Under the pieces are notes generated by a model. It saw only the letters and a program-made list of their open reading frames with translations. It searched no databases and was not told the origin of the DNA. Made by a program: the position numbers and the translations under genes. From an uncultured Nitrospira sp. (GTDB taxonomy: Bacteria > Nitrospirota > Nitrospiria > Nitrospirales > Nitrospiraceae), in the NCBI GenBank assembly GCA_964493335.1, contig CAZBNV010000006.1:1944-65943 (forward strand): a stretch of DNA of 64,000 nucleotides, given 5' to 3'. Shown here one piece after another: positions 36,568 through 51,680 of the stretch; position 1 is the stretch's first letter, and the number at the start of each line of letters is the position of its first letter.

Positions 36568-37086
36568 TTATTTGTGGCACGTGATGCAATCGCGAGACGC
36601 GCCTCGTTGCTGATGACAAGCCAAGCACCAGCCCATCTCGTACGTCGCAGCGCGCGGCGTGTGGGGTGTGGCCTCGACGTGTCCGTGGCAGTCCACGCAC
36701 TGCACCTGTTTTGCGAGGTGACGCTCATGCGTGAAGTACACAAAGTCCGGGAGGCGCTGCAGACGCACCCATGAGACAGGGCGTTGTTCACTCCAATGAT
36801 CGAGCAATGTTTGGATGCCGGCGTTCTTGGCGTCAATATTCTGGTGACATCCCATGCAGAGCTTCAGACTCGGGACGCCGGCCGTCGGTGATTGATGGGC
36901 GGAGCGGTGGCAAAATACGCAATCCAGCTTCAGGTGGCCCGCGTGAAATTTATGACTGAATGGGATGGGTTGGCGATCTTGAGCGGCCGAGTCGGCGCTA
37001 CCCAACGAATAGAGGAGTCCTACGACCACTGCGGCTATGCCGGCCAATAAGAGGATACCGAAGCTCTTCCACTGAGAACGACTCAT
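36568..37086 (-). CDS. actA: Membrane-anchored pentaheme cytochrome c (ActA-like)
   Basis: An N-terminal TM helix and five CxxCH motifs (CVFCH, CMGCH, CVDCH, CLACH, CITCH). Confidence 0.85.
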   Translation of the reverse strand: MSRSQWKSFGILLLAGIAAVVVGLLYSLGSADSAAQDRQPIPFSHKFHAGHLKLDCVFCHRSAHQSPTAGVPSLKLCMGCHQNIDAKNAGIQTLLDHWSEQRPVSWVRLQRLPDFVYFTHERHLAKQVQCVDCHGHVEATPHTPRAATYEMGWCLACHQQRGASRDCITCHK

Positions 37087-37222
37087 GTGCCGGCGCTATC
37101 GACAATTGCAATAAATACCTAGCGTGCAAGATACTCGTAGGTCTTTTCTATCCTGAACCATGCCAACCTCACACTAGGAAATCCTCCTGCTATCGCGTGG
37201 GCCAAAGCGTATGGGCCTCTCG

Positions 37223-37240
37223 GCTAGGGTACCCACTAGC
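37223..37240 (+). promoter_or_regulatory. CTAG-palindrome box upstream of the OMP-Slp-ligD unit
   Basis: GCTAGG-GTACCC-ACTAGC, followed after 22 nt by TACAGT (37263-37268), leaving a leader of about 63 nt to ATG 37338. Confidence 0.6.
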
Positions 37241-37337: not shown

Positions 37338-37967
37338 ATGAGGCTTATGTGGTATTCAGTTGTAATTTTGTTGTGCGTTTTGGTGGGGACGCTCCCGGCC
37401 CGCACGGCCTCGGCTGAGTGGTACGTGGCCGGCCAGTTCGGAGCCAATTTTGCCGATCAACTCAGCAACATTCGGGGAACCAGCAGCCTGAGCGGATTTC
37501 GCGCGCCGGACTTCGATTTGCAGAATTCATTCGTATACGGAGGCAAAGTCGGCATGTTTCCCGGTAACGGCTGGTTCGGCGTGGAGCTCGATGTGTTCCA
37601 CAGCACGCCGCACATCAAGAATCTCGATGATGTTCCCGGCATTCACATGCGGGTCACCAATGTCGGAGTGAATTTACTGGCGCGTTATCCCGGCGTCACC
37701 TTTCAGCCCTATGCGGGCATCGGCGCGGGCGCCGCCATCGCGCGCATCGGAGATTCCGCGACGACCCGCGGCAATACCGATGTCTCATCCGCCTTGAATC
37801 TGCTGGTGGGCATCAGAGCCTTCATCACGCCTTACGTGGCTGTTTACACCGAGTACAAATATAGTCAGGCTACCCTTGAGTTCAACAATGCCTTCGGGCC
37901 ATCGAGCGGGTTTAGTGGAAATTATGACGCACATATTATGGTCACGGGCTTGTCCTATCATTTCTAG
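37338..37967 (+). CDS. Outer-membrane beta-barrel protein (OmpA_membrane/OMP_b-brl type)
   Basis: AAGGAG at 37322-37327. Signal peptide ...ARTASA/EW, alternating beta-strand pattern, and a terminal ...GLSYHF aromatic residue. Confidence 0.8.
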   Translation: MRLMWYSVVILLCVLVGTLPARTASAEWYVAGQFGANFADQLSNIRGTSSLSGFRAPDFDLQNSFVYGGKVGMFPGNGWFGVELDVFHSTPHIKNLDDVPGIHMRVTNVGVNLLARYPGVTFQPYAGIGAGAAIARIGDSATTRGNTDVSSALNLLVGIRAFITPYVAVYTEYKYSQATLEFNNAFGPSSGFSGNYDAHIMVTGLSYHF

Positions 37968-37992
37968 GAAACGGGGGCAGTCGCAGCATCTG

Positions 37993-38694
37993 GTGGTAGG
38001 GGGCCTCTGTTTGCTTCTGTCTCTCTCGACCGCTTGCGCACAAAGCGCGCATCAGTCCGGTCGCGATCTGCTCGATCAAATCCTGCCCGATCAGGTGCAA
38101 CAGCAAATCGATCACTCAGTCTCTTTCGTGGACTTGAAAGCAAATCCGGCCGCCTATCAAGGCAAAACGATCATGGTGAGCGGCATCGTGCTCAAGAGTC
38201 GGCGCGTGAAGGATCGCACTGAGATCGAAGTGCTGCAAATTCCCACCGGGTCCGGGGCCGTCCCGACCAAGGATCGCGCAAGATCTCAAGGCCGATTCCT
38301 GGCCGTCAAGAGCGGGGAGTTTCTCGATCCTGCCGTCGTCGATGCCGGAACACCAGTGACGGTTGTTGGTGAGGTGGGTCCTGCCGTGACTCGAGGAATG
38401 GATGAAGGGGAATACACGTATCCTGTCCTGGAAATTAAACATGTGGTGGACTGGGATGAAGTCAATCCGCAAATGCGTTCCGCCCCCTACGCCTATCCCT
38501 ATGGTCGATCCATGTACGCGTACCCCTATTCCTATTGGGGACCTTACGGAGGAATGGGCGGTTGGTATGGTGGGTACCCAGGGTACTATGGGTATGGATA
38601 TCCCTATTACGGACCCTTCTTTGGATTTGGCGGAGGCTCGTCCGCTCCCGCTGGGCCACCGCCTGCATCCGCACCGCCACAGTTTAAAAAATGA
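37993..38694 (+). CDS. Slp-family (starvation-inducible) outer-membrane protein with a Tyr/Gly/Pro-rich C-terminal tail
   Basis: The Slp-like core (YQGKTIMVSGIVL...TEIEVLQIP...GRFLAV...FLDPAV...VTVVGEV...YTYPVLEIKHV) follows a signal sequence LCLLLSLSTACA. The start is uncertain: GTG 37993 or ATG 37924. Confidence 0.65.
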   Translation: MVGGLCLLLSLSTACAQSAHQSGRDLLDQILPDQVQQQIDHSVSFVDLKANPAAYQGKTIMVSGIVLKSRRVKDRTEIEVLQIPTGSGAVPTKDRARSQGRFLAVKSGEFLDPAVVDAGTPVTVVGEVGPAVTRGMDEGEYTYPVLEIKHVVDWDEVNPQMRSAPYAYPYGRSMYAYPYSYWGPYGGMGGWYGGYPGYYGYGYPYYGPFFGFGGGSSAPAGPPPASAPPQFKK

Positions 38695-38729
38695 TCTGAG
38701 AGGCTGGTCCTTCAGGGCGGAGGAGGCAT

Positions 38730-41348
38730 ATGGGTCTTCGGCAATATTGGAAGAAGCGCAACTTCACGAAGACGCCTGAACCGCGTGGGAAAACGATTCC
38801 GACTACCGGCCGTCTGCAGTTCGTCATCCAAAAACACGCCGCGAGCCGGCTCCATTACGACTTTCGCCTCGAGTTGGACGGCACGCTGAAAAGTTGGGCG
38901 GTCCCCAAGGGGCCCAGCTTAGACCCCGGACAAAAGCGGCTGGCTGTGCATGTTGAGGACCATCCGCTGGACTATGCCGGGTTCGAGGGCATCATTCCCG
39001 CCAAGCAGTATGGTGGCGGCACAGTATTGCTCTGGGATCGAGGCTATTGGGAGCCGATCGGCGACCCTGGCTCCAGTTACCGCCGTGGGCGGCTCAAGTT
39101 CACACTCCACGGGGAAAAATTGCATGGCATTTGGAACCTGGTTCGTATGGGTGGCCGACAGGAAGCGGGCAAGGAGAATTGGCTGCTGATCAAGGAAAAG
39201 GATGATGAGGCGCGTAGTGGGAAAAAAATCGATGTCACGCAGATGCTCACCACGAGCGTGGCGAGCGGCAAGAGCATCGAGCAAATTGCCAGCGGGGAAC
39301 ATGCAATATGGCAGTCCAATAAACAATCAAGCACAACGAGTCAGCCTGTCCCGAGGCGGCGTCCTATAAAAGGCATTCCTGCTCCTGGTGCTCGCAAGGC
39401 CGCCCAAGAAAAATGGGTTGTCCCTCAACTGGCAACGTTGGTGACGGCCTCCCCAGAGGGAAAGGAATGGGTCCATGAACTCAAATATGATGGTTACCGC
39501 ATTTTGTGCCGACTGCAGAACGGCACAGCCACGTTATGGACCAGGAACGGCCATGACTGGAGCGCCAAGTTGCCCCATATCGCCGCTGCGGCGGGAGACC
39601 TCCCGGTCAAAACAGCCTGGCTTGACGGTGAGGTCGTCGCGCTCTTGCCGGACGGGCGCGTCAGCTTCCAAACATTACAGAATGCGTTCGATACCCATTC
39701 AGACAGCAATCTGGTCTATTTCGTGTTTGACCTCCTCTATCATGATGGTTACGATTTACGGCCTGCCCCGCTGATTGAACGCAAGCGTCTCCTGTCGGCC
39801 CTGTTCAAAGACAACTCGCCGTCGGCCCTTGTTCAATACAGTGACCATATTAGCGGACAGGGTGAGGTCGCCTTTGCCGAGGCCTGCCGCAGTGGAATGG
39901 AGGGTCTGGTCGCCAAACGTGCCGATGCCTCCTATGTCGCAGGGCGAAATCGCAATTGGGTCAAGGTGAAGTGTGGCCGCCGCCAGGAATTCGTGATCGG
40001 CGGATTTACTGATCCTTCCGGCTCACGAACTGCCTTTGGAGCGTTGCTCCTTGGCGTCTATGATGCACAAGGCCGGCTACAATTTGCCGGACGCACGGGA
40101 ACGGGATTTTCAGACCGCTCCCTCAAAGAACTTCACGCCCGCCTCAAGAAACTTGAGCAAACGACGCCTCCCTTCGTCGATCCACCCGGCGGCGGGGAAC
40201 GTCGAGGAGTCCATTGGGTGAACCCCACACTGGTGGCCGAAGTGGCCTTTGCCGAATGGACGAACGAAGGTCAGTTGAGACAGGCCTCCTTTCAAGGTCT
40301 CCGCGAAGATAAGGCTGCTCGGACTGTCGTTCATGAGCGACCTGCCACCGGCGTCTCACCCAAAACCACAGGCACAGGTTCTGGCTCTCGATCTCAGAGG
40401 CAAAAGAAAGGATCTAAACCCAAGCGACTGTCGAACACCCATTCTCCAAATGGACCAACGACCGTGGGCGGAGTCACACTGAGTCATCCGGATCGAGTGT
40501 TGTTCCCCGAACAGCGCGTCACCAAGTTCACGCTGGCGCAATATTACGAATCGGTCAGCGAATGGATGCTGCCGCATGTCGAAGACCGACCTTTAACGCT
40601 CGTTCGCTGTCCCGATGGATACAACAAAGAATGTTTTTATCAGAAGCATGCGAATGATCGGATCCCAGAGGCAGTGGGACGAGTCGAGATTCCAGACGAC
40701 CAGGGAACGGCTTGTTATATGGTCGCCGACTCGCTCGCGGCGCTGGTGGGACTGGTTCAAATGGGTGTCTTAGAGTTGCACACCTGGGGGTCGAAGCGGG
40801 ATAAGCTCGAGCGCCCGGACCGCATGATCCTCGACCTCGATCCGGATCCGGCAGTCGAATGGTCGGCAGTCATCGAAGGAGCGCAACTATTACGCACATT
40901 GCTGAGCGAACTGGAATTGATGTCATTCGTCAAGACGACCGGCGGAAAGGGCCTGCATATCGTGGTGCCGCTGCGACGCGTTCACACCTGGGATGAGGTC
41001 AAGGCGTTCTCGAAAGCCATTGCAGACCATCTCGCGCATATGATTCCTGACCGTTTCCTGGCGCATATGTCCAAGCAGAAACGAAAGGGGAAGATCTATA
41101 TCGATTATTTGCGCAACGCCAAGGGTGCGACGGCCGTTGCTGCCTACTCCACGCGGGCTAGGCCAGGCGCCCCACTGTCGGTTCCGTTGGCGTGGGATGA
41201 ATTGTCGGTCGACATGCGATCCGACCATTTCACCATTGCCAACCTGCCGGATCGGCTCAGTCAGCTACGCCAGGATCCTTGGAAGGATTATTTTTCGACG
41301 CAACAACGCATCACCCGTAAAATGTTGGCGGCCCTGGCGTCCTCATGA
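38730..41348 (+). CDS. ligD: Multidomain ATP-dependent DNA ligase LigD (phosphoesterase, ligase and polymerase/primase domains)
   Basis: GGAGGAGG SD. PE domain FVIQKHAASRLHYDFRLE. Ligase motif I is ELKYDGYR. The C-terminal LigD-Pol domain contains FYQKH...LDLDPD...KTTGGKGLH. Confidence 0.95.
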   Translation: MGLRQYWKKRNFTKTPEPRGKTIPTTGRLQFVIQKHAASRLHYDFRLELDGTLKSWAVPKGPSLDPGQKRLAVHVEDHPLDYAGFEGIIPAKQYGGGTVLLWDRGYWEPIGDPGSSYRRGRLKFTLHGEKLHGIWNLVRMGGRQEAGKENWLLIKEKDDEARSGKKIDVTQMLTTSVASGKSIEQIASGEHAIWQSNKQSSTTSQPVPRRRPIKGIPAPGARKAAQEKWVVPQLATLVTASPEGKEWVHELKYDGYRILCRLQNGTATLWTRNGHDWSAKLPHIAAAAGDLPVKTAWLDGEVVALLPDGRVSFQTLQNAFDTHSDSNLVYFVFDLLYHDGYDLRPAPLIERKRLLSALFKDNSPSALVQYSDHISGQGEVAFAEACRSGMEGLVAKRADASYVAGRNRNWVKVKCGRRQEFVIGGFTDPSGSRTAFGALLLGVYDAQGRLQFAGRTGTGFSDRSLKELHARLKKLEQTTPPFVDPPGGGERRGVHWVNPTLVAEVAFAEWTNEGQLRQASFQGLREDKAARTVVHERPATGVSPKTTGTGSGSRSQRQKKGSKPKRLSNTHSPNGPTTVGGVTLSHPDRVLFPEQRVTKFTLAQYYESVSEWMLPHVEDRPLTLVRCPDGYNKECFYQKHANDRIPEAVGRVEIPDDQGTACYMVADSLAALVGLVQMGVLELHTWGSKRDKLERPDRMILDLDPDPAVEWSAVIEGAQLLRTLLSELELMSFVKTTGGKGLHIVVPLRRVHTWDEVKAFSKAIADHLAHMIPDRFLAHMSKQKRKGKIYIDYLRNAKGATAVAAYSTRARPGAPLSVPLAWDELSVDMRSDHFTIANLPDRLSQLRQDPWKDYFSTQQRITRKMLAALASS

Positions 41349-41475
41349 GGCACGGCCGCCAGGGTGGTTTCATGGTGGACCTGGGGGGAGTGCTAGTAGA
41401 GCCATTCAAGCGGTCCTGATATCAGTGATCATGACAAGCGGTCGTTTCACTGAAACATTCTGAAAGGAGAGCCGT

Positions 41476-41733
41476 ATGAATGCCACGATGTCCATCCCAC
41501 TGGTCAAGAAACATAAAGAGGTCTCCGGGTCCGTTCATTGTGACTCTCTATGCTGCACGCGATGCGGAGGTCTGTTGGTCGAAGAGCGTTGCATGGATAT
41601 CGGTGAAAGCCTCGGAGGGTACTGGTTTTTGGCCATGCGTTGCGTGCAATGCGGTGATATCGTCGACGAAGTGATCTTGCGGAATCGCTACGCGCATCTC
41701 GTGACGGCTCAGGAAGTTGTACGCGCCGCCTGA
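41476..41733 (+). CDS. Small zinc-ribbon protein, function unknown
   Basis: AAGGAG at 41463-41468, 7 nt before the ATG. 85 aa with CCTRCGG...C...CVQCGD. Confidence 0.6.
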   Translation: MNATMSIPLVKKHKEVSGSVHCDSLCCTRCGGLLVEERCMDIGESLGGYWFLAMRCVQCGDIVDEVILRNRYAHLVTAQEVVRAA

Positions 41734-41936
41734 GACCTGTAATCCGGCCACGCCGCTGTCTGCGAGAAGGAGGCGTTATGGCGCAGTATCTGGATCCACT
41801 TATACGATCCGGAGCCATGTGGTCATGTGGACGACAGTCGGCGGTCAGGCCGCAGTCTGGACTGTGGTCGAGAATCTGGAGGTGGCTGGGAGTGAGCCGT
41901 CCCGCCGCACCGAGGCCCATCGTCTTTCGGAGCCCG

Positions 41937-42313
41937 TTATTGAGGCCGGGAAGGCCACGGTACTGAAGAGGGCATTTTCGCTTGTCTATAATCGAGACGG
42001 GTCTGCTGGACGACAATCGGAACGGTCGATTCGACCACGCTGGCATAATCCGTATCTGGCGGAATTGGTGCAGGATCCGAGAGTTGATTGAAACGGAGGT
42101 GTTTCGTACGCCGTACTGGGACTGAAAGCCCGTAGGGGCCCCCACCGGCTCGCGATCCGAGAAGTAGACCGTGATCCGAACGTCGGCATCCAGGTCTGAG
42201 ATATTGAGTAGGCAGAGGGTCTCATGACTGATCATTTGCCGGGGACGGCCCCTGGCTGCTTGGTGGATATAGCCTTCGGCAAGCGCCCAGCCGGTGCGTC
42301 CAATCGCATCCAT
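41937..42313 (-). pseudogene. ASRT-family (Anabaena sensory rhodopsin transducer-like) gene disrupted by two frameshifts
   Basis: Frame A reads MDAIGRTGWALAEGYI...ISHETLCLLNISDLDADVRITVYFSDREPVG. Homology continues in a second frame (GPYGLSVPVRRTKHLRFNQLSDPAPIPPDTDYASVVESTVPIVVQQTRLDYRQA) after the G/C run at 42135-42143. It then continues in a third frame (ENALFSTVAF) after the T/A run at 41975-41978. Confidence 0.7.
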
Positions 42314-42346
42314 AGCATCCTTCTGTGAACTGCTCCAACCCTACTT

Positions 42347-44098
42347 TCACACCACTTCCCGAATTTTATTTTCAACCACGGTTTTCATCAGTGCCCATCG
42401 ATCTTCGGTTCCTCGAGCAACCGCTTTCACGAATTGCCAGGCCTGCGCGGTCGTAATCTTGCCTGGTAACGGAGGTTCGAATGGATCGATGACCGCTTGG
42501 ACGACGACCGGACCGGGAATGGCGAAGGCCTGCTGCAAGACGTTTCTGACCTGACGGGGATCTTCGACCGTGAGTCCGGCCGCACCGCAGGATTGAGCAA
42601 AAAGGGCGAAATCGATCGGTTGCAGTTCTACTCCGTATTGAGGGTTTCCTTCAAACGCCAACTGTTCCCACTTGATCATACCGAGGAGGTTGTTTTTCAG
42701 GACGATGATTTTCACAGGAATTGCGTATTTCACCAGAGTAGCCAATTCTCCCATCAACATGGTGAATCCGCCGTCCCCTGCAATACATACGATTTGTCGG
42801 CCTGGATAGGCCACGCCGGCTGCGAGACTGTAGGGGAGGCCGTTCCCCATCGACGCCAAGGTGCCGGAGACAGAAAATTCCATGTCGCCCTTCATGCGGA
42901 TATGACGAGCGGCCCACGTCGTGACCGTGCCGGTATCACAACACACAATGGCATCGTCCGCGAGAAATTCATTCAGGGCGCGCACCACCACTTGGGGTTT
43001 CAGTGGAGCGTCCATACGCGTGCCGCGCTCTTCCATCAACTCATTCCACTGTCGCATCTTGTGTTGCGCAGCTTCGAGAAAGCTGCGATCGGATTTCTTT
43101 TCCAAGAGAGGCAGCAGGGCGCGAAGCACATCCCAACAATGTCCCACCAGTCCGACTTCAACCGGATACCGTAGGCCGATCCGACCCGCATCGAGATCGA
43201 TCTGTACGGCGCGGGCCTGCCCCGGTTTTGGATAGAATTCCAAATAGGGGAAGCTGCTGCCGGCGATGATGAGGGTATCGCATTCTTCCAGCACTTCCTG
43301 TGAAGGAGCGGTGCCGAGCAGGCCGATCCCTCCGGTGGTGAGGGGATGATCATCCGGCACCAAGCCCTTCCCGAGCAGCGGCTTGACGATCGGGGCGCCG
43401 AGCAGTTCGGCCAGTTGCAGGATATCCTTTTTCGCACCCAGGCACCCGCGTCCGGCGAGGATCGCAATTTTTGATCCGGCATTGATGAGGGTCGCGGCCT
43501 TGTCGAGTAACGTGCGTGAGGGCAGAGGCAGGGGATCGCTATAGAGGTCGCCGCTATGCCGGGGAATGTTGGCCTTGGAGCGTTCATCGTCCGCACTCCA
43601 ATCCTGTATATCCTTGGGAATGGTGATGTGCGCCACTGTGCGCCTCGAAATGGCCGTCTTGATCGCCATGTCGACCACGTTGCCGACATGGGCCGGGCCC
43701 ATGACCCGCTCACTGTAGGCGGCCACATCGCTGAAGAGCTTATTCAGATCCACATCCTGTTGGTAATGCGTACCGCTTAAGTCGTGGAACGTGTGCCCCG
43801 TGATCGCCAACACTGGTTGCCCGTCGCACTTGGCATCGTATAAACCGTTTAGAAGGTGAATGCCGCCGGGGCCGGATGTCGCCAGGCAGACCCCGAGACG
43901 CCGGGTAAACTTGGCATAACCGCAAGCAGCGAGGGCGGCGGATTCTTCATGCCGCACCAGAATGAGTTGGATGGTGTCTTGCCGCGTGCGTAGTGCCTCA
44001 TAGATCCCGTTGATCCCGTCCCCCGGCAGGCTGAACACCGTATCCACGCCCCAATCAATCAAGCGCTCTATCAAAATATCGGCCACGGTCTTCGACAT
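42347..44098 (-). CDS. poxB: Thiamine-diphosphate/FAD pyruvate oxidase (PoxB-like pyruvate:quinone oxidoreductase)
   Basis: The N-terminal TPP-Pyr domain (VRHEESAALAACGYAK...ATSGPGGIHLLNGLYDA), the central FAD domain and the C-terminal TPP motif GDGGF...N resemble E. coli PoxB. Confidence 0.8.
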   Translation of the reverse strand: MSKTVADILIERLIDWGVDTVFSLPGDGINGIYEALRTRQDTIQLILVRHEESAALAACGYAKFTRRLGVCLATSGPGGIHLLNGLYDAKCDGQPVLAITGHTFHDLSGTHYQQDVDLNKLFSDVAAYSERVMGPAHVGNVVDMAIKTAISRRTVAHITIPKDIQDWSADDERSKANIPRHSGDLYSDPLPLPSRTLLDKAATLINAGSKIAILAGRGCLGAKKDILQLAELLGAPIVKPLLGKGLVPDDHPLTTGGIGLLGTAPSQEVLEECDTLIIAGSSFPYLEFYPKPGQARAVQIDLDAGRIGLRYPVEVGLVGHCWDVLRALLPLLEKKSDRSFLEAAQHKMRQWNELMEERGTRMDAPLKPQVVVRALNEFLADDAIVCCDTGTVTTWAARHIRMKGDMEFSVSGTLASMGNGLPYSLAAGVAYPGRQIVCIAGDGGFTMLMGELATLVKYAIPVKIIVLKNNLLGMIKWEQLAFEGNPQYGVELQPIDFALFAQSCGAAGLTVEDPRQVRNVLQQAFAIPGPVVVQAVIDPFEPPLPGKITTAQAWQFVKAVARGTEDRWALMKTVVENKIREVV

Positions 44099-44108
44099 AA
44101 GACTCCCT

Positions 44109-45296
44109 TCACGAGCGAATAGAGGATGGCGTCTGAGCGGCGTTGCGCGTGAGCCTGGGGATGAGCAACTCCTGGACGAGAATTTTTAGACAGGCGGCGA
44201 CGGGGATGGCGAGCAAAAGACCATAGAAGCCGCCGAGCGCGCCGCCGATGAAGACGACGATCAGTACGGTAACCGCATTCATCTCCATCGACTGGCTCTG
44301 TACCCAGGGCGTGAGCAGCCAGCTTTCAATGAACTGTACCGCCAGATAGGCCAGGGAAGGCCATACCACGATTGCCATGAGGTCGAAACCATGTGTTCCG
44401 CTAGACAAAACATCGAGATATTTGAGCAGGACGGCTAGCGGCCAGCCTATCAACGAGGCGTAAGGAATGATGGTAAGAATGCCGGTGATCAGCCCGAGCA
44501 AGAACCAATACCGTATGCCGGTGAGTGCCCATCCGAGCGAGTACAGAATGGCTGACACCAGGGCGATCATGAGCCGACCTCGGAAGAAACCGCTCAACGC
44601 TTCGTCCATCCGTCGCGTGATCCGTTGGACCTGCGGGCGATACTGGGTCGGAACATACCGTTTGAGGGTGGTGAGGGCACTGTCGAATTGCCAGGCGAAG
44701 AAGAAGAAATAGATGGGGATCAGGGTGAGCGCCAGGACAATGGCCGTTGTCGTGCCGATGACGGCTCCCAGCATGCCGAATGCCTGCCCGGTGCTAGAAA
44801 AGATCGGTCTTAGGATGGAGAGGGGATCCTCCTTGAGACTCGTGGCGATCGTCGACAGGGGTTCGGAAAAATCGCCGAGACTGACGTGATACCGCTGCGC
44901 GATATTTTGCAAATATCCCGGCACCCGTTCCGCGAGCGATTGCACTTGCTCGGCAAGCAAGGGCCCTAACCAGGTGACGAGCCCTCCGAGGGTGAGGGCA
45001 GAGAGAAAGAGGACGATGGATATCGTCACGGGACGGGGAACCTTCCATTGCCGCTCCGCATGTCTGATCAAGGGATTAAAGAGATAGGCCAAGAGCAAGG
45101 CGATGAGGACGGGGGTAAAGACTCCGCGTAAGTAGTAGCCGAACCACATAAGGAAAACGATAGCTCCCACCCACAACACATCTCTGATGAGCGTGATTTC
45201 CCACAGGTGGCGATCGGTGGGAGGAACCGCAGATGTCGCCTTCCGTGGCACAGCCGTTTCGTCATCGGTCAGCATATCGGCATAATCGGGTTTCAT
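44109..45296 (-). CDS. AI-2E family transporter (PerM/UPF0118)
   Basis: 395 aa with about 8 TM helices and the characteristic FTPVLIALLLAYLFNPL and LLAIPVAA segments. Confidence 0.85.
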   Translation of the reverse strand: MKPDYADMLTDDETAVPRKATSAVPPTDRHLWEITLIRDVLWVGAIVFLMWFGYYLRGVFTPVLIALLLAYLFNPLIRHAERQWKVPRPVTISIVLFLSALTLGGLVTWLGPLLAEQVQSLAERVPGYLQNIAQRYHVSLGDFSEPLSTIATSLKEDPLSILRPIFSSTGQAFGMLGAVIGTTTAIVLALTLIPIYFFFFAWQFDSALTTLKRYVPTQYRPQVQRITRRMDEALSGFFRGRLMIALVSAILYSLGWALTGIRYWFLLGLITGILTIIPYASLIGWPLAVLLKYLDVLSSGTHGFDLMAIVVWPSLAYLAVQFIESWLLTPWVQSQSMEMNAVTVLIVVFIGGALGGFYGLLLAIPVAACLKILVQELLIPRLTRNAAQTPSSIRS

Positions 45297-45341
45297 ATCA
45301 CTGTCCAGTCCCTGCCATGTATCCTGGTGTTAAGAGCCGGC

Positions 45342-45734
45342 TCAGCGGCTCTGGTTACGCGGGACGCGAAGCGCTGATGAGGCCCCGAGTGCCCCCGGAA
45401 GTCCTAGAGAGAGAATGTCGCTCCGGCTGCCCTCGACCACATTATCCAGGTACATCTGGAGCAAGGATAGGGCGTCGGACGGCGGGACTGTGCGAAGGTA
45501 CGACATGAGTTCCAGTATCACCTGCTCGAGCGGGAACAATCCCAGGAAGGTGGTCAAGAATAGCAACGCCGGGAACAGCGCCAGCAAAAAATAATAGGCC
45601 AGCTGTGCAGCACGACCCGGGATCTCGTCCTTCTGACCTTCTTGCCAGAGACGCTGTCCGAGGTCTTTCCGTCCTAGCCCACCGAGCTTCCAGGGGTTCC
45701 AGCACGGGGAGGGACTTGTCAGGGAAGCGGGCAC
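45342..45734 (-). pseudogene. Truncated YihY/BrkB-family membrane protein (N-terminal about 130 aa only)
   Basis: The signature GRAAQLAYYFLLALFPALLFL is present, but the ORF stops after ...LSLGLPGALGASSALR. Only 45 nt remain before the next gene, and full-length members are about 280-300 aa. Confidence 0.6.
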
Positions 45735-45925
45735 AAGGTCCTCTCTCAGGAGAGTGCGTCGGAGATAAGCGTGATTGGGTGGCAGAAACTCCCATTAGGC
45801 CTGACCGCTTACCCCGTGATCTCTGGCTGACCATCGAGGAATCGTCGTTGGTGGCACATCTATGAACCTCAGTGCCAGCCTCGATATGATTCGCGTACTG
45901 CTCCCGAGAGCAGGATATTGGCTCG

Positions 45926-46642
45926 TTATGTTGCTGCTGTGGTTGCGCGATCCCGTGGCTCATTGCTCTGGTGATCCGCCGGAGAAGATGCTCGCGCGCC
46001 GGCTGACCCCTTTTCGCTATCGGGCTGAGATGACGCATTGAGTCCAAAAGAACGCGCGATCTCCGGCACCATCTTGCGTGCTAATTCCACCATCAAAGAG
46101 CGACCCACCTGCAGCAGGACGGTTTTAGCCTGCTCAGCCTCTTGGCTGAATTCGCGCGACATGCTGTCCCACACGCTTGTTTGAGATCGAGCTGTTTGTG
46201 TTGTCCGCGACTGTGATCCCGTAGGATAGTAGTCATAGACGCCATCCGCTTTATCGGTGGCGGCTCCAGCTTGGCGGGCGGATTCCGGCATGACCCGCGA
46301 TGCTCGAGCCCCTGCGGGATAGTAAGGATAGACGCCACTGCGCTGAGATCGCGACCGTGACTCCATCAATCCGACGGCAAAACCAGCGCAAATGGCCCCG
46401 CCCAGCATGAGCCATGGGTACTCATCGACTTTGTGGATTGGATCTAATGCCGATTTGGTTTTATCGACCATCTGGTTGACCGTCTCAGTCGTCTCCTCCA
46501 GCATGCGCGAAAATTTCATTGTCGCTCCCTCCGCCGTATCGATTATACGTTGTTCCAACAACTCGAGTTTCTCGGCAATGGCGACTCGCGTGTCGACGAT
46601 GTCCTTCACGTCCTGGTCGATAGTAGTTGTTCTTTGATCCAT
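45926..46642 (-). CDS. Hypothetical coiled-coil protein with a central TM helix
   Basis: AAGGAAG lies 7 nt before ATG 46642. A helical N-terminus is followed by the TM helix YPWLMLGGAICAGFAVGLM and a Ser/Gln-rich tail. Confidence 0.6.
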   Translation of the reverse strand: MDQRTTTIDQDVKDIVDTRVAIAEKLELLEQRIIDTAEGATMKFSRMLEETTETVNQMVDKTKSALDPIHKVDEYPWLMLGGAICAGFAVGLMESRSRSQRSGVYPYYPAGARASRVMPESARQAGAATDKADGVYDYYPTGSQSRTTQTARSQTSVWDSMSREFSQEAEQAKTVLLQVGRSLMVELARKMVPEIARSFGLNASSQPDSEKGSAGARASSPADHQSNEPRDRATTAAT

Positions 46643-47013
46643 TGGGCATCTTCCTTTATGGAATGAACGGTACGGAATGGCCAAAGCCGGAGACTGGATC
46701 CTATCTTGGCCAGGTTGTACAAAAAGATGCCGCTCAGCGAGGCGGCGATGACTGCGACGAGTCCATAACACGACCACAACGGCATACCGGTGTAGGCCTG
46801 AAGAATATGCACCAGCATGACCAACAACAGGCCGATGGCCATCAAAATCAGCATGCTGCCGAGGGCGGCATGGATCAGCCCGATTACGACCTTCCGCAGT
46901 TCGAGCTGCATCTCGTGCTGAGCTAGTCGTACCTCCTGCGACACAAGTCGCCGCAGATCGGCCACCAGGCCTGTCGCTAAGGCAGCAATTGAAATGGGAT
47001 GCGGATTATCCAT
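46606..47013 (-). CDS. Holin-X/DUF1469 family membrane protein (E. coli YqjE-like)
   Basis: ATG 47013 follows an AAAGGAA SD. Two TM helices are flanked by LVADLRRLVSQEVRLAQHEMQLEL, which is typical of the family. Confidence 0.7.
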   Translation of the reverse strand: MDNPHPISIAALATGLVADLRRLVSQEVRLAQHEMQLELRKVVIGLIHAALGSMLILMAIGLLLVMLVHILQAYTGMPLWSCYGLVAVIAASLSGIFLYNLAKIGSSLRLWPFRTVHSIKEDAQWIKEQLLSTRT

Positions 47014-47041
47014 AACGGTTCCTTTTTTCCGTACTCGCGAC

Positions 47042-47383
47042 TCAATCAGGACGGAGGCGCGAGAGTAAGTACCCGCACCCCAATCCAAGCAATAGGGTTT
47101 GTAGAGGATAGCGCCGAATGAGAACTTCGAGATCTTCGACGATGCCGCTCATGCCTTCTTTTTGCAAATAGTCGGCGGTATGCTTGACTCCGCGGGACAT
47201 TGCAGCCGCTGCCTCGCCCACGGTTCCGCTTTCCGGCAACCGCCGGCGAAAGTTTTCAGCCGCAGATCCTAGCGCGTCGCCGGCTTGCTCGCTTAGGCCC
47301 TCGGCAGACTCGACGGTGTCTTTCGCGGCTTGTTTCAGCGTCGATCCGACCGATTCTTCCATGCTTAGTTTCTCCCGCTCCAT
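47042..47383 (-). CDS. DUF883 (ElaB/YqjD-like) tail-anchored stress protein
   Basis: GGGAGG SD. A helical, Ala/Glu-rich N-terminus and the C-terminal anchor YPLQTLLLGLGCGYLLSRL. Confidence 0.7.
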   Translation of the reverse strand: MEREKLSMEESVGSTLKQAAKDTVESAEGLSEQAGDALGSAAENFRRRLPESGTVGEAAAAMSRGVKHTADYLQKEGMSGIVEDLEVLIRRYPLQTLLLGLGCGYLLSRLRPD

Positions 47384-47492
47384 GTGATGCCTCCCGTTAC
47401 AGACAAGGTTCCGGCACGAGTAGTGCTGCGGTGTTGTTTCGATTGGTTTTCATCGTACAGTCAGAGACTAGCGCGATCGACGGCTTTCCTAC

Positions 47493-47510
47493 ACTGGGCA
47501 AAGCCCTAGA
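47493..47510 (-). promoter_or_regulatory. CTAG-palindrome box upstream of the ElaB-like operon
   Basis: ACTGGG-CAAAGC-CCTAGA. On the minus strand it is followed after 22 nt by TAGTCT (47465-47470). Confidence 0.65.
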
Positions 47511-47682
47511 CGCCATGGGGCTGCAAGGCTTCGATGACCTGACATTGAAAGCCTTCGACTCCATAAGTTTTGGACTGACTTGTTGAACGCATCGTGAGAG
47601 ATTTAGAGCATCTGAAAATGTTCCGAGACCGCGAACGGCGAATCGTAGCGGCGGGAATTCATGTGCCGAAATTCCTCCCCAA

Positions 47683-48111
47683 TTATTCCGAATGTTCTGA
47701 CGGGATCGTCGCGAGTAGTGGAAACATGTCGCGTTCCTCCGCCAGGAAATGCGCGCGCACCGTCTGCATCATGTCTTCAAAAAATTCGTCAAATGCCTGG
47801 TCATCGTCGGTTTCGGCTTGCTGCAACTCGGTCATCATGGCCTTGACCTCGTCATGTTCGAGCAACGCTTCCTGCACGAGGTGTCGACCCTGTTCGCTTC
47901 CGCTTCGGATCTCTCCGTACAGAAGTGTTTCTTCCGCCTGGAAATGCGAGGCGAGCTGCTCCAGAATTTGATCGACAATGGGCTTTCGGGCATCGGCTTC
48001 AGCGGTCAGATACAGCTGAAACAATGCCAAAATGTGCCGGTGTTCATCACGGACCATTTTTTGAACATCGCTGACTCCTCGGGACTTTCCAGAGTCTCTT
48101 TTGGGGATCAT
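47683..48111 (-). CDS. Hemerythrin-like (HHE cation-binding) domain protein
   Basis: GGGAGG SD. His/Glu ligand pattern: EHRHIL, HFQAEE, EHDEVK, HFLAEERDMFP. Confidence 0.8.
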   Translation of the reverse strand: MIPKRDSGKSRGVSDVQKMVRDEHRHILALFQLYLTAEADARKPIVDQILEQLASHFQAEETLLYGEIRSGSEQGRHLVQEALLEHDEVKAMMTELQQAETDDDQAFDEFFEDMMQTVRAHFLAEERDMFPLLATIPSEHSE

Positions 48112-48187
48112 TGAATTGCCTCCCTCGATGGTCGATGGTGGCCTGTTGGTTATAAAGAAAATTTAGCAGCTTGAAATGGGGGTGCTA

Positions 48188-48205
48188 ACTGGGCAAGACC
48201 CTAAT
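48188..48205 (-). promoter_or_regulatory. CTAG-palindrome box (degenerate) upstream of the hemerythrin gene
   Basis: ACTGGG-CAAGAC-CCTAAT. On the minus strand it is followed after 22 nt by TAAATT (48160-48165), leaving a leader of about 42 nt. Confidence 0.6.
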
Positions 48206-48426
48206 AGTCTCAATGGGAGAAAAAGGAAGAAGGTGAGCTAGATACGCCCCATAAGCATCAGAACTACCTTGACCAATAGCAAAGTACTCATGAATCCACT
48301 GGATAGTAGCGCCAGTTGCGGCTGTAGGGCCGGGTGGGAAGCGCGCCAACCAGAAACTTGTTCAGTACGAGCTTTCCCTTGGTGAGGCTGCGCAGGCTCA
48401 CGCCTGTCGCAGCCCCCGACCAGGGT

Positions 48427-49905
48427 TTACCGAGTTTCCTGTCTTGACGACGCACGCGCCCCATTATCCTCAACCGTAATGTTGCCGTGGGCACTCGCGG
48501 TTCCCTGAAGCAAAATCGTAGCGATCCAGGCTTGGGGAGTCGAGTGCGCTTGATCGGGTTGTTGGCCCGTGACGAGGATGTCCGTCGTCACGGTGCCTAC
48601 CGTGTGTTTCCCTGTAATTGCCTGCTTCATCTGATCAATTTGCGAGGAGAAGTCCATGGTGATAGCCTGGCGGAGTTTGGTTTTCAATTCTCTGTCGACC
48701 GTTTGCCAATAGCCCACGCGTATAGAGTCGAGCGCTGTCCTTGATTCATTGGCCATCTGCAGGTCCGGAACTGATAAGGTTTTTCCATTATCATCCAGCC
48801 GGGGAGTCCCCCAGTAATAGATGGTTCCCTTCAGATCACTGCCGGTCTCGACCGCCAGTAAGATACGACCGTTCGCATCTGCAGCCGTGACGCGTTCAAT
48901 GATGGCGCTTTCTGATCCCGCGCTATCCAGAACCAGCGTTTGATGAAACAGTTTGCTTTGGAGTTGGTGGCTGAGTGTGGCATAGGACAGGGGAATTTTT
49001 GCTAAGATCATGAACGGCTTGGAGTCGCGCGCGGGAGTTCCTGCATTCACGAGCGCCGTCGTCGGTGGCGCTTCTGTGCAGGATGGCTCGAGGTTGATCA
49101 TCGGCATCTGTCGAGCAAATCCCGAGATGATCGTCTCCTGGGTCGTCCCTTGCTGCTGGCCCAGCATCACCTCTCGCGGATTTCCGTACAAACATGCACG
49201 GGTGTTGAGGGCCGAAATGGGGACCGATAGGGGACCTCCTAGGTCATCCCATAAACGTTGAAATGGAATGTTGAATGTGTCCGGTTGAACAGACTCCGCC
49301 AAGGCGGTCTTCACTTCGGATAGGGAGAACAATTCTGGTAACTGATCTTTCACGGGGATGTTGAACATGTTGCACCGCGCGTCGCTTTCCGGCTTCAGGC
49401 CGACTGTGACTTGTGCAGGCTCAAAACCAAATGCGACGGATTCGCGGTCCTGCAGCAACACCAATTTCCCTGTCGCATCCAAAGTGGAATAGACGGGATC
49501 GAGTCGACAGGTCCTTGCCCCGCCGCGCGTTTCGATATCCCCTTTATACTCGGCATGAACCGCGACAAGGCCATCCTGTATGCGGACTTGGGGTTGGCCA
49601 TTGCGAACAAATGTCCACCGGAAATCTTTCTCCAGTGCATGTCCCGCTTCCGTGAACCGTTCGGGAATCGCGTCCCGAACCGCAGATTGAACCGGCGTAA
49701 GGTCGGTCTTGATCTGTAGCGGCACCTGGGAGAGCGGCGCCTTGGGCGGTTCCTTGTTCATGGCTGCGAAGGAAGGCACGGCGCTGGCAATGGGAGGCGG
49801 AACCGGTTTGGATGCAGCCTGGGGAATGGTATGGCTGCACGCGCCAGTTATCAGAACGATGGGCAGTAGCGCCAGTATGATGGATCTCGAACGGTGTTGC
49901 ATCAT
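48427..49905 (-). CDS. Large lipoprotein of unknown function
   Basis: GGGAGG precedes ATGATG at 49905/49902. Signal with lipobox LITGAC. About 490 aa, beta-rich. I cannot name a family with confidence. Confidence 0.7.
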   Translation of the reverse strand: MMQHRSRSIILALLPIVLITGACSHTIPQAASKPVPPPIASAVPSFAAMNKEPPKAPLSQVPLQIKTDLTPVQSAVRDAIPERFTEAGHALEKDFRWTFVRNGQPQVRIQDGLVAVHAEYKGDIETRGGARTCRLDPVYSTLDATGKLVLLQDRESVAFGFEPAQVTVGLKPESDARCNMFNIPVKDQLPELFSLSEVKTALAESVQPDTFNIPFQRLWDDLGGPLSVPISALNTRACLYGNPREVMLGQQQGTTQETIISGFARQMPMINLEPSCTEAPPTTALVNAGTPARDSKPFMILAKIPLSYATLSHQLQSKLFHQTLVLDSAGSESAIIERVTAADANGRILLAVETGSDLKGTIYYWGTPRLDDNGKTLSVPDLQMANESRTALDSIRVGYWQTVDRELKTKLRQAITMDFSSQIDQMKQAITGKHTVGTVTTDILVTGQQPDQAHSTPQAWIATILLQGTASAHGNITVEDNGARASSRQETR

Positions 49906-50022
49906 GAGCCTCCCAGACATCTCACATGCGGGGTCTCGCTCATGACGCGCTACCGCCACCTTGCACGCGCTCCGTGCAGGACCGCAGTCCGGAGCGAGAC
50001 CCTCGCTGTACAAATCAGAGCC

Positions 50023-50331
50023 TTACGGCTGCTGGATTTGCAGGTTGTTGTTCACAGTTCTCACGCCCTTGACCTCGCGTGCCATTTCCGCGACTCGAAT
50101 CTTTTGATCGGCAGATTTCACGACTCCGTTCAGAGTCACGACACCGCGTTCCGTGTCGACGTCGATGCGGGAAAAATTGGACAAGCGATCGGAAGATAAT
50201 TTGGACTGCACTGAGGCGGTGATGGTCGCATCGTCCATGGTCTGTCCGGCGGTCTTTCCGGTCGTGGACTGGCAACCCGCGATCGAGAGACATGTGACGG
50301 CAAGAGCGATGCAAGCGAATCGGCTGATCAT
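50023..50331 (-). CDS. BON-domain lipoprotein (OsmY-like)
   Basis: AGGAGA SD and lipobox SIAGC. The BON domain reads DDATITASVQSKL...IDVDTERGVVTLNGVV...A..V.GV..V.N.L. Confidence 0.85.
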   Translation of the reverse strand: MISRFACIALAVTCLSIAGCQSTTGKTAGQTMDDATITASVQSKLSSDRLSNFSRIDVDTERGVVTLNGVVKSADQKIRVAEMAREVKGVRTVNNNLQIQQP

Positions 50332-50376
50332 AGTTGTTCTCCTGTATAAGGGTGTGTCGTAATTAAATTCTCGGGA

Positions 50377-50703
50377 CTAGCCCCGTCGGGAAACCGCTTC
50401 AGTGGATGCCTTTTCTGCCGTCTGCTTCGTCTCATCGACGAACTCGCGAGCGGCTCGCCCCGCATTGCGCAATGCTTGTTTTCCACCTTCGACATATTCC
50501 TGACCCCGCTCGACAGCGGTATCCCAGGCCGCACGTCCTTGCTCAGTGGCTTCGTCGAGTTCATCCTTCGCCCTCGATGCGTAATCGCGCAGAGAAGAGC
50601 GAAGCTCTGATCCCGATTGAGGCGCCAATAGCAAAGCTACGCCGGCACCGATGAATGCGCCCGCCAAAAACGCCGACCAATTGGAAGAATCTTGTGTCTG
50701 CAT
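50377..50703 (-). CDS. YtxH-domain general stress protein
   Basis: AAGGAGG SD. The N-terminal helix FLAGAFIGAGVALLLAPQSGSELR is the YtxH signature, followed by a helical tail. Confidence 0.85.
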   Translation of the reverse strand: MQTQDSSNWSAFLAGAFIGAGVALLLAPQSGSELRSSLRDYASRAKDELDEATEQGRAAWDTAVERGQEYVEGGKQALRNAGRAAREFVDETKQTAEKASTEAVSRRG

Positions 50704-50816
50704 AACTCGACCTCCTTATTCTCACCCACACGTGCGATGGTTTGACTGCGCTGTTTTGGCCTACCGGTTCGACAGCTGTTTGCAAACACAGTCTAGCAAC
50801 ATGTCGGAAATCTCTA

Positions 50817-50834
50817 ACTAGGCAAGGCCCTAGT
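50817..50834 (-). promoter_or_regulatory. CTAG-palindrome box upstream of the ytxH-BON-lipoprotein unit
   Basis: ACTAGG-CAAGGC-CCTAGT is a perfect inverted repeat. On the minus strand it is followed after 21 nt by TAGACT (50790-50795). Confidence 0.7.
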
Positions 50835-51269
50835 CATGATAATTTCCAACCCGCCGGGAGCCTGTAGGCGCCTTGTCACATGCCGAGAGTGTTGATCGGA
50901 GGGTCATACGGCCGGGATGGCTGAACAAAGTACAATACTAAATTTGAGCATGGAGTCACCCCCAGCCACTCAGTGCCTGACCACTCCCACATGCCCGCGT
51001 GCGCGAGCGAGACTGTTTGCCAGTGGGTTCTTATGGCTGCTCGCAGAAGTGCCATTCGGCATGGAATAGGCGGATCCAAGGCCGTGATCTTTGAGTTGAT
51101 CCGTTCGATGAAGTATGGGAGGATTGCCCGCACAGAATCGATGGGCTCCGATGCCAGCTAGATGGCTCCGCATCGTCAGTGCCATCGAGGGCAATTACAG
51201 AATGGCTCTACGGAAATACGTGTACTTCACACAGGCTGATTGATTGACTCAGCAGAGGGAGAGGAGCCG

Positions 51270-51680
51270 ATGCCGACAACGACGCAATTTGTAGTGAGTG
51301 GACAGAGCAAGCCGGGGGTGCTGGCCGAGGTCGCGACAGTGCTGGGGGCCGCCGGGGTCAACATCAAGGCATTCTCGGCGCCAGAGGTCACCGGTCCGGG
51401 CAAGCTGCGCTTGATCGTGGCGGATGTGGATGCCGCTCGTATCGCATTGAGGAAATCAAAGATCAAGTTCCGCGAAGAGACGGCGTTGATTTTGAGCCTG
51501 GAGAACAAGCCGGGCGCGCTGAAACAGGTGGCTGATTCGCTCACCCGAGCCCGCATCAATGTGAAGTGCGGTTATTGCACCCCGTCACGGGAAGGCAAAC
51601 GTGCCATTGTGGTGCTGACCGTGTCGAACACCACCAAGGCCCTCGGGGTCCTGCGCACTCAATCACTCGACGAGTTTTAA
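51270..51680 (+). CDS. Tandem ACT-domain protein
   Basis: GAGGGAGAGGAG precedes ATG 51270. There are two beta-alpha-beta-beta-alpha-beta repeats (GVLAEVATVLGAAGVNI and GALKQVADSLTRARINV). Confidence 0.75.
   Translation: MPTTTQFVVSGQSKPGVLAEVATVLGAAGVNIKAFSAPEVTGPGKLRLIVADVDAARIALRKSKIKFREETALILSLENKPGALKQVADSLTRARINVKCGYCTPSREGKRAIVVLTVSNTTKALGVLRTQSLDEF

Follow-up and report, generated by a model that had tools for sequence, protein, structure and literature searches.

A palindromic CTAG box heads the transcription units of a putative survival regulon in Nitrospira

Nitrospira are the dominant nitrite oxidisers of soils, drinking-water systems and wastewater plants and survive long starvation, anoxia and drying; to our knowledge, no general stress regulator has been described in this phylum-level lineage. 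The question of such a regulator is raised by a 64,000-nt stretch of DNA from an uncultured Nitrospira sp. (contig CAZBNV010000006.1; below, the window). An earlier note on this DNA described a concentration of general-stress and stationary-phase protein families at 37.3-50.7 kb and, pointing to a shared CTAG box, proposed a dedicated survival island driven by a transcription factor rather than by an alternative-sigma promoter. Are these genes controlled together, how far does the box extend, and which factor would read it? For comparison, 80 loci around homologues of the PoxB-like enzyme encoded in this stretch were fetched, and further loci around homologues of the kinases and regulators (all labelled L001 etc.). 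Protein families were called with Pfam (gathering score) on all long open reading frames (ORFs) and with NCBIfam on selected proteins, and lipoboxes were read from the sequence.

We consider it probable that about 39 kb of the window, with 32-39 genes and about 12 promoters, forms a regulon that is jointly activated via the box by a NarL/FixJ regulator as a survival programme, and that 37.3-50.7 kb is its right-hand third. In the proposed mechanism, each of the approximately 12 transcription units would be headed by the palindrome (A)CTAGGG-N4-(G)CCYAG(TT), which would end 23±1 nt before a TAnnnT -10 hexamer that has no -35 element. A dimeric factor centred near -43 would most likely act as a class II activator that brings in RNA polymerase and switches on all units together. 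This factor would most likely be a response regulator of the NarL/FixJ type (REC+GerE), one of an adjacent conserved pair, and the PAS/HisKA_3 and GAF hybrid kinases flanking the cluster would phosphorylate it, perhaps in response to energy or nitrite starvation, anoxia or desiccation.

The box, its promoters and its conservation

The shared CTAG box proved to be a genuine conserved cis-element, a 16-bp palindrome of the form CTAGG-N6-CCYAG (CTAGG-N6-CCTAG in the exact version). The tetranucleotide CTAG itself occurs 61 times in the window, where a Markov model predicts 68 copies and base composition 237. For the exact box CTAG-N8-CTAG, in which the second CTAG follows 12 nt after the first, we found seven copies against 0.035 expected, with a maximum of one in 200 simulations under a third-order Markov model. 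Five variants with CCCAG, CCGAG or TTAGG half-sites bring the total to 12 copies between 12.4 and 50.8 kb, heading about 12 transcription units (box starts at 12457, 13661, 13694, 17285, 19243, 21064, 21116, 37174, 37224, 47494, 48189 and 50818). All 12 are located in intergenic DNA, which makes up 7.9% of the window. The stretch originally singled out holds five of them, and no boxes were found in the window right of 50.8 kb. An origin of the box as part of a miniature inverted-repeat transposable element or a repetitive extragenic palindromic element was ruled out by the lack of extended repeats around the copies.

The position of the box relative to the adjacent genes is nearly constant. 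Seven of the 10 boxes first examined are followed by a TAnnnT hexamer 22-24 nt past the box, towards the adjacent gene. Over 80 distinct box sites from the window and the Nitrospira loci, the hexamer starts at 22, 23 and 24 nt in 14, 36 and 6 flanks, respectively, with about one flank at other offsets; the consensus over sites is aCTAGGG-N4-gCCYAGtt, then 21-22 nt, then (G)nTAnnnT. Taking the hexamer as the -10 element would place the box at about -51 to -36 and its centre near -43. No -35-like element was found, no sigma-70 -35/-10 consensus in the intergenic spacers of the cluster, and no EcfG or SigB consensus anywhere in the window. By inspection of the alignment only, the conserved footprint upstream of ytxH has no match to the sigma-54 pattern GG-N10-GC. 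The combination of a palindrome with a fixed position of 23±1 nt points to a dimeric transcription factor, and in this respect the geometry agrees with the proposal of a transcription factor in place of an alternative-sigma promoter. Class II sites are centred at -41.5 for CRP, FNR and NtcA and at -42.5 for regulators of the LuxR type, and a dyad at a fixed helical position over the -35 region is most likely the signature of a class II activator; it is this geometry alone that suggests activation rather than repression.

In the right-hand part of the cluster, the exact Box 1, CTAGGGCCTTGCCTAG (50818-50833, minus strand), is the predicted promoter element of ytxH-BON-DUF4403, with a -10-like TAGACT at 50790-50795. 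The variant TTAGGGTCTTGCCCAG (48189-48204, minus strand; position weight matrix score 7.0) would serve the hemerythrin gene, and the variant CTAGGGCTTTGCCCAG (47494-47509, minus strand) would serve the unit that runs from the ElaB-like gene to poxB. The predicted promoter of OMP-slp-ligD carries the exact box CTAGGGTACCCACTAG (37224-37239, plus strand) with TACAGT 23 nt downstream; this box and the GTACAGT element are kept in L005, L013, L016 and L017. On the other side of the same intergenic region, a degenerate box at 37174-37189 (minus strand; CTAGGAAATCCTCCTG on the plus strand), with TAGAAA 23 nt away, faces an operon of cytochrome c7, molybdopterin oxidoreductase, NrfD, ActD and cytochrome bd-like genes. 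Its ACTAGG..CCTCCTG half is kept in L005 and L013, and it only weakly suggests that this respiratory operon belongs to the regulon.

This is one of three intergenic regions with two boxes, one per divergent unit. In the second, the box at 21064-21079 faces the DAO/Rieske gene (minus strand, TAGGCT at 22 nt) and that at 21116-21131 faces the ku-treZ operon (plus strand, TATTTT at 23 nt); a box also adjoins the o114-Ku genes in L012. In the third, the box at 13661-13676 faces the DUF326/Csp unit (minus strand) and that at 13694-13709 the PLD-VTT/EEP unit (plus strand), and this pair is conserved in L085 at 11419 and 11450. Three single boxes on the minus strand complete the set: at 19243-19258, upstream of a gene for a HAD-phosphatase/AAA ATPase fusion; at 17285-17300, upstream of the gene for a 154-aa Cys-motif protein and conserved in L085 at 15041; and at 12457-12472, 253 nt upstream of the hybrid-kinase operon HK4-cheR-cheB-HK3 (5547-12203).

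Conservation of both synteny and box across related genomes, which the earlier note had named as a check, was observed in at least 11 Nitrospira genomes with PoxB 81-93% identical. In these, a box is followed by ytxH-BON-DUF4403-hemerythrin-ElaB-like-DUF1469-o283-brkB-AI-2E-poxB, converging on ligD-slp-OMP with a box at its other end; because of this kept gene order and the box statistics, the clustering goes beyond chance. The regions upstream of ytxH in 12 genomes are unalignable except for ACTAGGGCCWTGCCTAGT and, 20 nt further, TGnTAnnnT. Upstream of the ElaB-like unit in 13 genomes, the sole conserved blocks are an identical box core and TAGTCT at 23 nt. The box upstream of the hemerythrin gene is kept in nine of 13 genomes, followed by CTGCTAAAT at 23 nt, and box and -10 are again the sole conserved blocks; the remaining four genomes have no box here, and DUF4403 and the hemerythrin gene lie directly side by side.

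The same association is found where the gene order has changed. More distant Nitrospira have the order HK-HK-treZ-GDE-DUF72-poxB-OMP-slp-ligD, with the box CTAGGGTCCTTCCCAG before treZ. The complete genome CP060501.1 (L089) has a 20-kb stretch with genes for AI-2E, Slp, HAD-AAA, CsbD, OMP, a thiamine pyrophosphate (TPP) enzyme, GlgC, amylase, holin_3_6 and Ku, which contains five exact and three variant boxes. Throughout the distant Nitrospira (L089, L045, L094-96), genes for AI-2E, Slp, HAD-AAA, holin_3_6, Ku, TPP enzyme, CsbD, BON, OMP and amylases are rearranged yet box-bearing. The density of boxes is 7.2 per 100 kb in the close Nitrospira loci compared with 0.2 per 100 kb around non-Nitrospira poxB. 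Since the association between box and families survives rearrangement, it argues for a regulon and not for inherited synteny alone.

Candidate regulator and kinases

Candidate sensors were found by Pfam at the left end of the window, where HK1, a GAF-HisKA hybrid kinase truncated at the edge of the window (a full-length homologue has about 1200 aa), and HK2, with the architecture REC-PAS-HisKA_3-HATPase-REC, occupy 37-4515 (plus strand). The HK4-cheR-cheB-HK3 operon (5547-12203, minus strand) has its own box at 12457, and its CheB is without a receiver domain. HK1 and HK4 combine GAF-HisKA with three receiver domains, and HK2 and HK3 are REC-PAS-HisKA_3-REC proteins, both with PF07730. HisKA_3 kinases normally partner NarL-type regulators. 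Homologues of the HK genes abut treZ-poxB-ligD in L021, L026, L039, L041, L042 and L045.

In L045, two REC+GerE genes come after an HK2 homologue, the second with a perfect box 79 nt upstream. Orthologues of this second regulator are widespread in Nitrospira (64-99% identity), and the regulator genes form a convergent pair in every longer context fetched. In L089, the pair of response regulator genes (RR1 and RR2) is embedded centrally in the stress cluster; one box precedes RR2 by 165 nt, and another precedes a HisKA_3-RR1 operon by 68 nt. In L094-96, boxes flank the RR pair, which is placed between a CBS-ferritin-GlgX-CsbD/BON-OMP-DUF1207 operon and genes for acetate kinase or phosphoketolase. 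A metagenome scan revealed a box in 10 of 12 further regulator orthologues, mostly 132-151 nt upstream, with TAAAAC, TACAAA or TATAAA at 23-24 nt, pointing into the regulator gene; five of these metagenomic orthologues also have a box before the partner regulator. The 321 kb of control sequence from 64 unrelated NarL regulator loci contained five weak matches but not a single exact box. Altogether, box-flanked REC+GerE genes were identified in about 15 Nitrospira genomes. The presence of the box at the regulator genes implies positive autoregulation, and there is good circumstantial evidence for a self-activating regulator, which is thereby a candidate for the factor that reads the box.

Several side observations concern these genes. 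A second palindrome, CTCGG-N6-CCGAG, precedes the RR2 box by about 32 nt in L098-L103, and two degenerate boxes of the window (13661 and 21116) are CTAGG/CCGAG hybrids; the half-site preferences of the two paralogous regulators (CTAGG and CTCGG) may be related. In L085, where HK1 is 94% identical, one 175-aa gene replaces the HK4-cheR-cheB-HK3 operon, two DUF5985 genes and a 129-aa ORF of the window. In L086 (16470-21478; HK1 79% identical), an RsbR-RsbS-RsbT-RsbU-like stressosome module and another hybrid kinase come next after HK1-HK2 and two DUF5985 genes. The stressosome beside HK1-HK2 and the PAS/GAF domains would fit either energy/oxygen or general stress inputs. No regulator was found beside the kinases in L085 and L086, and an exact-protein look-up towards the left flank returned no matches for HK2 and matches for DUF5985 only on contigs of 2-5 kb.

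Activation, rival explanations and known systems

The sign of regulation and the identity of the factor are the points at which the rival explanations differ. The box may be bound by an activator of another family, CRP/FNR-type or unrecognised and encoded elsewhere, with the NarL pair merely one of its targets. The geometry of the box speaks in part for this explanation, as TAG-N8-CTA has the same 3-N8-3 arrangement as the sites of CRP (GTG-N8-CAC), FNR (TTG-N8-CAA) and NtcA (GTA-N8-TAC, then TAN3T at 22 nt), and the observed spacing agrees with class II action of these proteins at -41.5; in addition, the window encodes no regulator. However, sites of the LuxR/GerE type (CT-N12-AG, centred at -42.5) fit as well, no CRP/FNR gene was seen near boxes in about 100 fetched loci, and it is the REC+GerE genes that are box-flanked, with HisKA_3 kinases syntenic with the cluster. 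We therefore regard another activator as unlikely.

A repressor is, in our estimate, less likely still. The box would then be an operator like the LexA/SOS box, DdrO/RDRM or HrcA/CIRCE, and the genes would be silent until the repressor is removed by cleavage or titration under stress. A palindrome alone does not tell the sign of regulation, repressors control many bacterial stress regulons that have perfect palindromic operators, and Deinococcus couples DNA-repair genes to such a palindrome. Operators of repressors, however, usually vary in position between promoters, whereas here the distance from box to hexamer is constant within ±1 nt, the hexamer is not covered by the box but downstream of it, and there is no -35 or sigma-70 consensus to block. 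The explanation that there is no common regulation at all, and that the cluster reflects only inherited synteny with palindromes that are restriction-related, structural or remnants of repeats, could draw on the general avoidance of CTAG, an unusual tetranucleotide (61 copies versus 237 by composition) for which odd distributions are possible. It is strongly disfavoured, and we give it hardly any weight: seven exact copies stand against 0.035 expected, all are intergenic at a fixed distance to a -10-like hexamer, and the boxes are conserved amid diverged flanks, outside longer repeats, and with the same families after rearrangement.

Several points weigh against joint activation by the NarL/FixJ pair as a survival programme. 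The assignment of the -10 hexamer, and hence the position near -43, comes from sequence only, and the 16-bp geometry suits CRP/FNR-type sites as well as those of the NarL/LuxR type. Pfam scans found no DNA-binding domain among the approximately 60 ORFs of the window. Regulator orthologues in L091-93 (66% identity) are without boxes, so the link is not present in every lineage, and the box at the regulator genes of other Nitrospira could simply make them members of the regulon and not its master. Nor is a stress role obvious for several predicted members, namely the DAO/Rieske gene, the HAD-AAA fusion and the respiratory operon. A literature search gave no expression data for these Nitrospira genes, and the term stress-induced is thus used by analogy.

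Among known systems, the closest analogue is DosR/DevR of Mycobacterium tuberculosis (OsdR of Streptomyces), a NarL-family REC+GerE regulator with HisKA_3 kinases, like the candidate here. Kinases of this type are linked to the Nitrospira regulon as well, namely HK2 and HK3 in the window and HK homologues by the cluster elsewhere. Both systems have a palindromic box over the -35 region at many dispersed or clustered promoters and positive autoregulation, and in both the output would let an obligate aerobe survive without growth. The candidate regulator has a match in the DevR structure 3c3w (E=2e-21). It is, however, an ordinary NarL-family protein whose closest solved structures are NarL, VraR, DesR and DevR, and it is no nearer DevR than the other three. 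The DosR box is GGGAC-N8-GTCCC in a 20-mer, in contrast to CTAGG-N6-CCYAG here, and its sequence TTSGGGACTWWAGTCCCSAA is not matched by the window consensus aCTAGGG-N4-gCCYAGtt, since half-site and spacing differ. Moreover, the Nitrospira kinases are PAS/REC hybrids, whereas those of DosR are GAF-GAF haem sensors, and the outputs are non-homologous end joining (NHEJ), trehalose and envelope lipoproteins here versus Acr and universal stress proteins there.

The general stress systems RpoS (Escherichia coli), SigB (Bacillus subtilis) and PhyR-NepR-EcfG (Alphaproteobacteria) share the effectors, including BON/OsmY, proteins of the ElaB/YqjD-YqjE type, PoxB, Slp, YtxH, CsbD, Ku/LigD and trehalose enzymes, and a stressosome module (RsbR/S/T) is found beside the kinases in a relative. 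Their genes are read from alternative sigma promoters, whereas here a dyad site lies upstream of a plain TAnnnT -10. The lux/las boxes and the NtcA/CRP promoters likewise have a dyad of 16-20 bp (CT-N12-AG; GTA-N8-TAC-N22-TAN3T) at -41.5/-42.5 in place of the -35 element, but differ in recognition sequence, and neither the effector or signal nor the regulon content here is related to quorum sensing, nitrogen or cAMP. The radiation-desiccation response of Deinococcus (RDRM, DdrO/PprI) is also based on a transcription factor, with a palindrome before DNA-repair and desiccation genes; RDRM, however, is a repressor operator of variable position and other sequence, and no DdrO/PprI-type genes were seen here.

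It is quite possible, and we advance it more tentatively than the regulon itself, that Nitrospira have a two-component replacement for RpoS/SigB/EcfG, with an operator near -43, a self-activating NarL-type pair, a multi-kinase network (PAS/HisKA_3, GAF, CheB/CheR and, in some genomes, a stressosome) and targets mostly in one 40-kb super-cluster. If true, the BON, YtxH, CsbD, ElaB-like, Ku/LigD, trehalose and PoxB families would have been recruited under a two-component regulator and not an alternative sigma factor. Our literature search found no paper describing this box or regulon, which looks like a previously undescribed survival programme of Nitrospira. The defined cis-element and the candidate regulator make survival regulation in Nitrospira open to direct experiment, and the box-headed genes provide a marker set for the physiological state of Nitrospira in metatranscriptomes.

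Gene content and borders of the cluster

The functions of the regulated genes, as suggested by their families, would cover several aspects of survival. BON, Slp, OMP, the DUF4403 lipoprotein, YtxH, the ElaB-like protein and DUF1469 would stabilise envelope and membranes, and Ku, LigD and TopIB would provide end-joining repair of double-strand breaks in non-growing cells. TreZ and the debranching enzyme would convert glycogen to trehalose or glucose. The PoxB-like enzyme would conserve energy in the conversion of pyruvate to acetate, with acetate kinase/phosphoketolase genes beside the regulator in other genomes. PLD and EEP may serve lipid remodelling, and Csp and hemerythrin metal or oxygen handling. 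Induction of the genes by starvation, desiccation or osmotic stress would be expected only from the functions of these families in E. coli and B. subtilis.

Eight of the nine families named for 37.3-50.7 kb scored above the Pfam gathering score (Slp, LigD, the PoxB-like TPP enzyme, AI-2E, DUF1469, hemerythrin, BON and YtxH), and hidden Markov models (HMMs) also confirmed Ku, TreZ, the debranching enzyme and DUF326/Csp, which had been noted nearby. The stretch begins at 37338 with the ATG of a gene for an outer membrane protein (OMP) beta-barrel (37338-37967, plus strand; PF13505, 55 bits) and not with the gene for Slp. The latter, a Slp-family outer-membrane lipoprotein (PF03843, 111 bits versus a cut-off of 22.5; lipobox LSTA|C), follows on the same strand at 37876-38694 (ORF coordinates; the true start is later). 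LigD (38730-41348, plus strand) matches PF13298, PF01068, PF04679 and PF21686, all above cut-off; its phosphoesterase, ligase and polymerase domains are present in one polypeptide, and Ku is encoded at 21417-22277.

The remaining genes of the stretch are on the minus strand. The PoxB-like enzyme (42347-44098), of the pyruvate oxidase/dehydrogenase clade, has three TPP-enzyme domains in Pfam and is 98% identical to a protein from a Nitrospira metagenome-assembled genome (MAG) and 82% identical to one from an N. defluvii MAG. Its NCBIfam scores are below cut-off for both PRK08273 (635 bits, cut-off 724) and the pyruvate oxidase model PRK08611 (578 bits, cut-off 742), and it is clearly nearer these models than the acetolactate synthase model (333 bits only). 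It is preceded by the gene for an AI-2E family transporter (44109-45296; PF01594, 164 bits, profile positions 4-326 of 327). Two genes of the stretch are decayed. One is a 130-aa BrkB/YihY remnant (45342-45734) that covers only profile positions 1-87 of 259; its orthologues are full length at about 300 aa (L003, L005, L009, L017), and the window gene is short by about 550 bp before the AI-2E gene. The other is an ASRT-like pseudogene (Anabaena sensory rhodopsin transducer family; 41504-42313) with two frameshifts, in which PF07100 covers residues 4-59 only and the remaining domain is in other frames. The ASRT-like ORF of the window has 100% aa identity to an independent short-read contig (L001). 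Orthologues are intact in L006, L008 and L015 (122 aa), L003 has a degraded copy, and the region downstream of poxB in L005 yielded no intact ASRT-like ORF.

The protein encoded at 47042-47383, which the earlier note assigned to DUF883, did not bear out this assignment. It has no Pfam match even at E<=5 and none in NCBIfam, and the 71 close homologues, all from Nitrospira, are without annotation and without any Pfam domain. In a profile search, three of 72 remote relatives match PF05957 and two match PF19029 (both DUF883 models). DUF883 membership is not confirmed, as the support from HMMs, homologues and the profile search is marginal only. By its architecture, the 113-aa protein is a tail-anchored member of a Nitrospira-specific family, with a C-terminus RRYPLQTLLLGLGCGYLLSRLR that is invariant among homologues and a tail RRYPLQ..G.G.G..LSR; what it appears to share with ElaB/YqjD (about 100 aa, a helical N-terminal part, a C-terminal P-x-Q...G-x-G-x-G...R membrane anchor and a place before a DUF1469 gene) is resemblance, not membership. 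The adjacent gene (46606-47088, likely start 47013) encodes a YqjE-like membrane protein of the Phage_holin_3_6 family, formerly DUF1469 (PF07332, 65 bits, profile positions 3-116 of 116). It is followed by a gene for a second tail-anchored ElaB-like protein (o283; 45926-46777, likely start about 46642) of 283 aa with a disordered C-terminal tail, which has no Pfam match and is conserved in 13 loci.

The units upstream encode a hemerythrin with an HHE cation-binding domain (47683-48111; PF01814, 64 bits), a DUF4403 lipoprotein (48427-50013, likely start about 49920; PF14356, 112 bits; lipobox ITGA|C), an OsmY-like BON-domain lipoprotein (50023-50331; PF04972, 71 bits; lipobox SIAG|C), which has a single BON domain whereas OsmY has two, and a YtxH-like protein (50377-50703; PF12732, 58 bits versus a cut-off of 37.5) with the N-terminal hydrophobic segment AFLAGAFIGAGVALLLAP.

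Left of 37.3 kb, the cluster is divided into halves by the respiratory operon (28552-37086, minus strand), which encodes cytochrome c7, a molybdopterin oxidoreductase, a 4Fe-4S protein, NrfD, ActD/cytochrome c and two cytochrome bd-like subunits. This operon is absent at that position in L004, L010, L012 and L016-18. In several genomes, the ku-topIB-treZ-GDE-DUF72 operon directly adjoins the ligD unit, which shows that the respiratory operon separates the two in some genomes only, including the window. The box-facing ku operon itself (21207-28188, plus strand) starts with a small Cys-rich ORF of 68 aa, followed by genes for Ku (21417-22277), a bacterial type IB topoisomerase, TreZ (23410-25329; NCBIfam, 631 bits versus a cut-off of 539), an archaeal-type debranching enzyme (GDE; 25360-27408; NCBIfam) and DUF72. 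Within 21207-23413, ku and topIB, as well as topIB and treZ, overlap by 4 nt, suggesting that translation of the NHEJ, TopIB and trehalose genes is coupled within one operon.

Further to the left are the box-facing DAO/Rieske gene (19439-20986, minus strand), the box-headed gene for the HAD-phosphatase/AAA ATPase fusion (17431-19194, minus strand) and the box-headed gene for the 154-aa protein (o154; 16744-17208, minus strand). The N-terminus of the latter protein has a C-C-x-C ... C-P-x-C motif, possibly a zinc ribbon; the protein is kept in L085 (69% identity) and less well in L086. Neither o154 nor the 68-aa Cys-rich ORF matches a known family in Pfam or NCBIfam. The PLD-VTT and EEP nuclease/phosphatase genes form a box-facing unit at 13829-16736 (plus strand). 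The opposite box-facing unit (12511-13589, minus strand) consists of the DUF326/Csp gene (13182-13589; HMM) and, downstream at 12511-13124, genes for two small predicted secreted/membrane proteins of 124 aa and 64 aa, the latter proline-rich, which escaped the longest-ORF call, hidden as they are by a spurious 343-aa ORF on the opposite strand. A scan for intrinsic terminators gave matches no more frequent than in shuffled sequence, and the operon ends are thus undefined.

Of the proposed survival island, the clustering is real, but its extent was drawn too small, as the boxes span 12.4-50.8 kb, and it is not acquired DNA. Scans of the window found no tRNA and no Rfam match, and GC content is 55-63% along its entire length. 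A horizontally acquired island is ruled out by the lack of tRNA, the lack of an integrase in the Pfam scans, the uniform composition and the genus-wide conservation. In L008 and L017, the sequence just upstream of the ytxH box ends like the 3' end of a tRNA (GGTTCAAGTCC...CGCACCA), whereas ACT/RlpA/CNNM genes are found there in the window; the left border of the cluster, on the ytxH side, therefore varies between genomes. In the window, a gene for an ACT-pair protein (51240-51680, plus strand) lies right of the ytxH promoter region, and a trpE-trpG-trpD-trpC operon (59761-63809, plus strand) lies at the right end.

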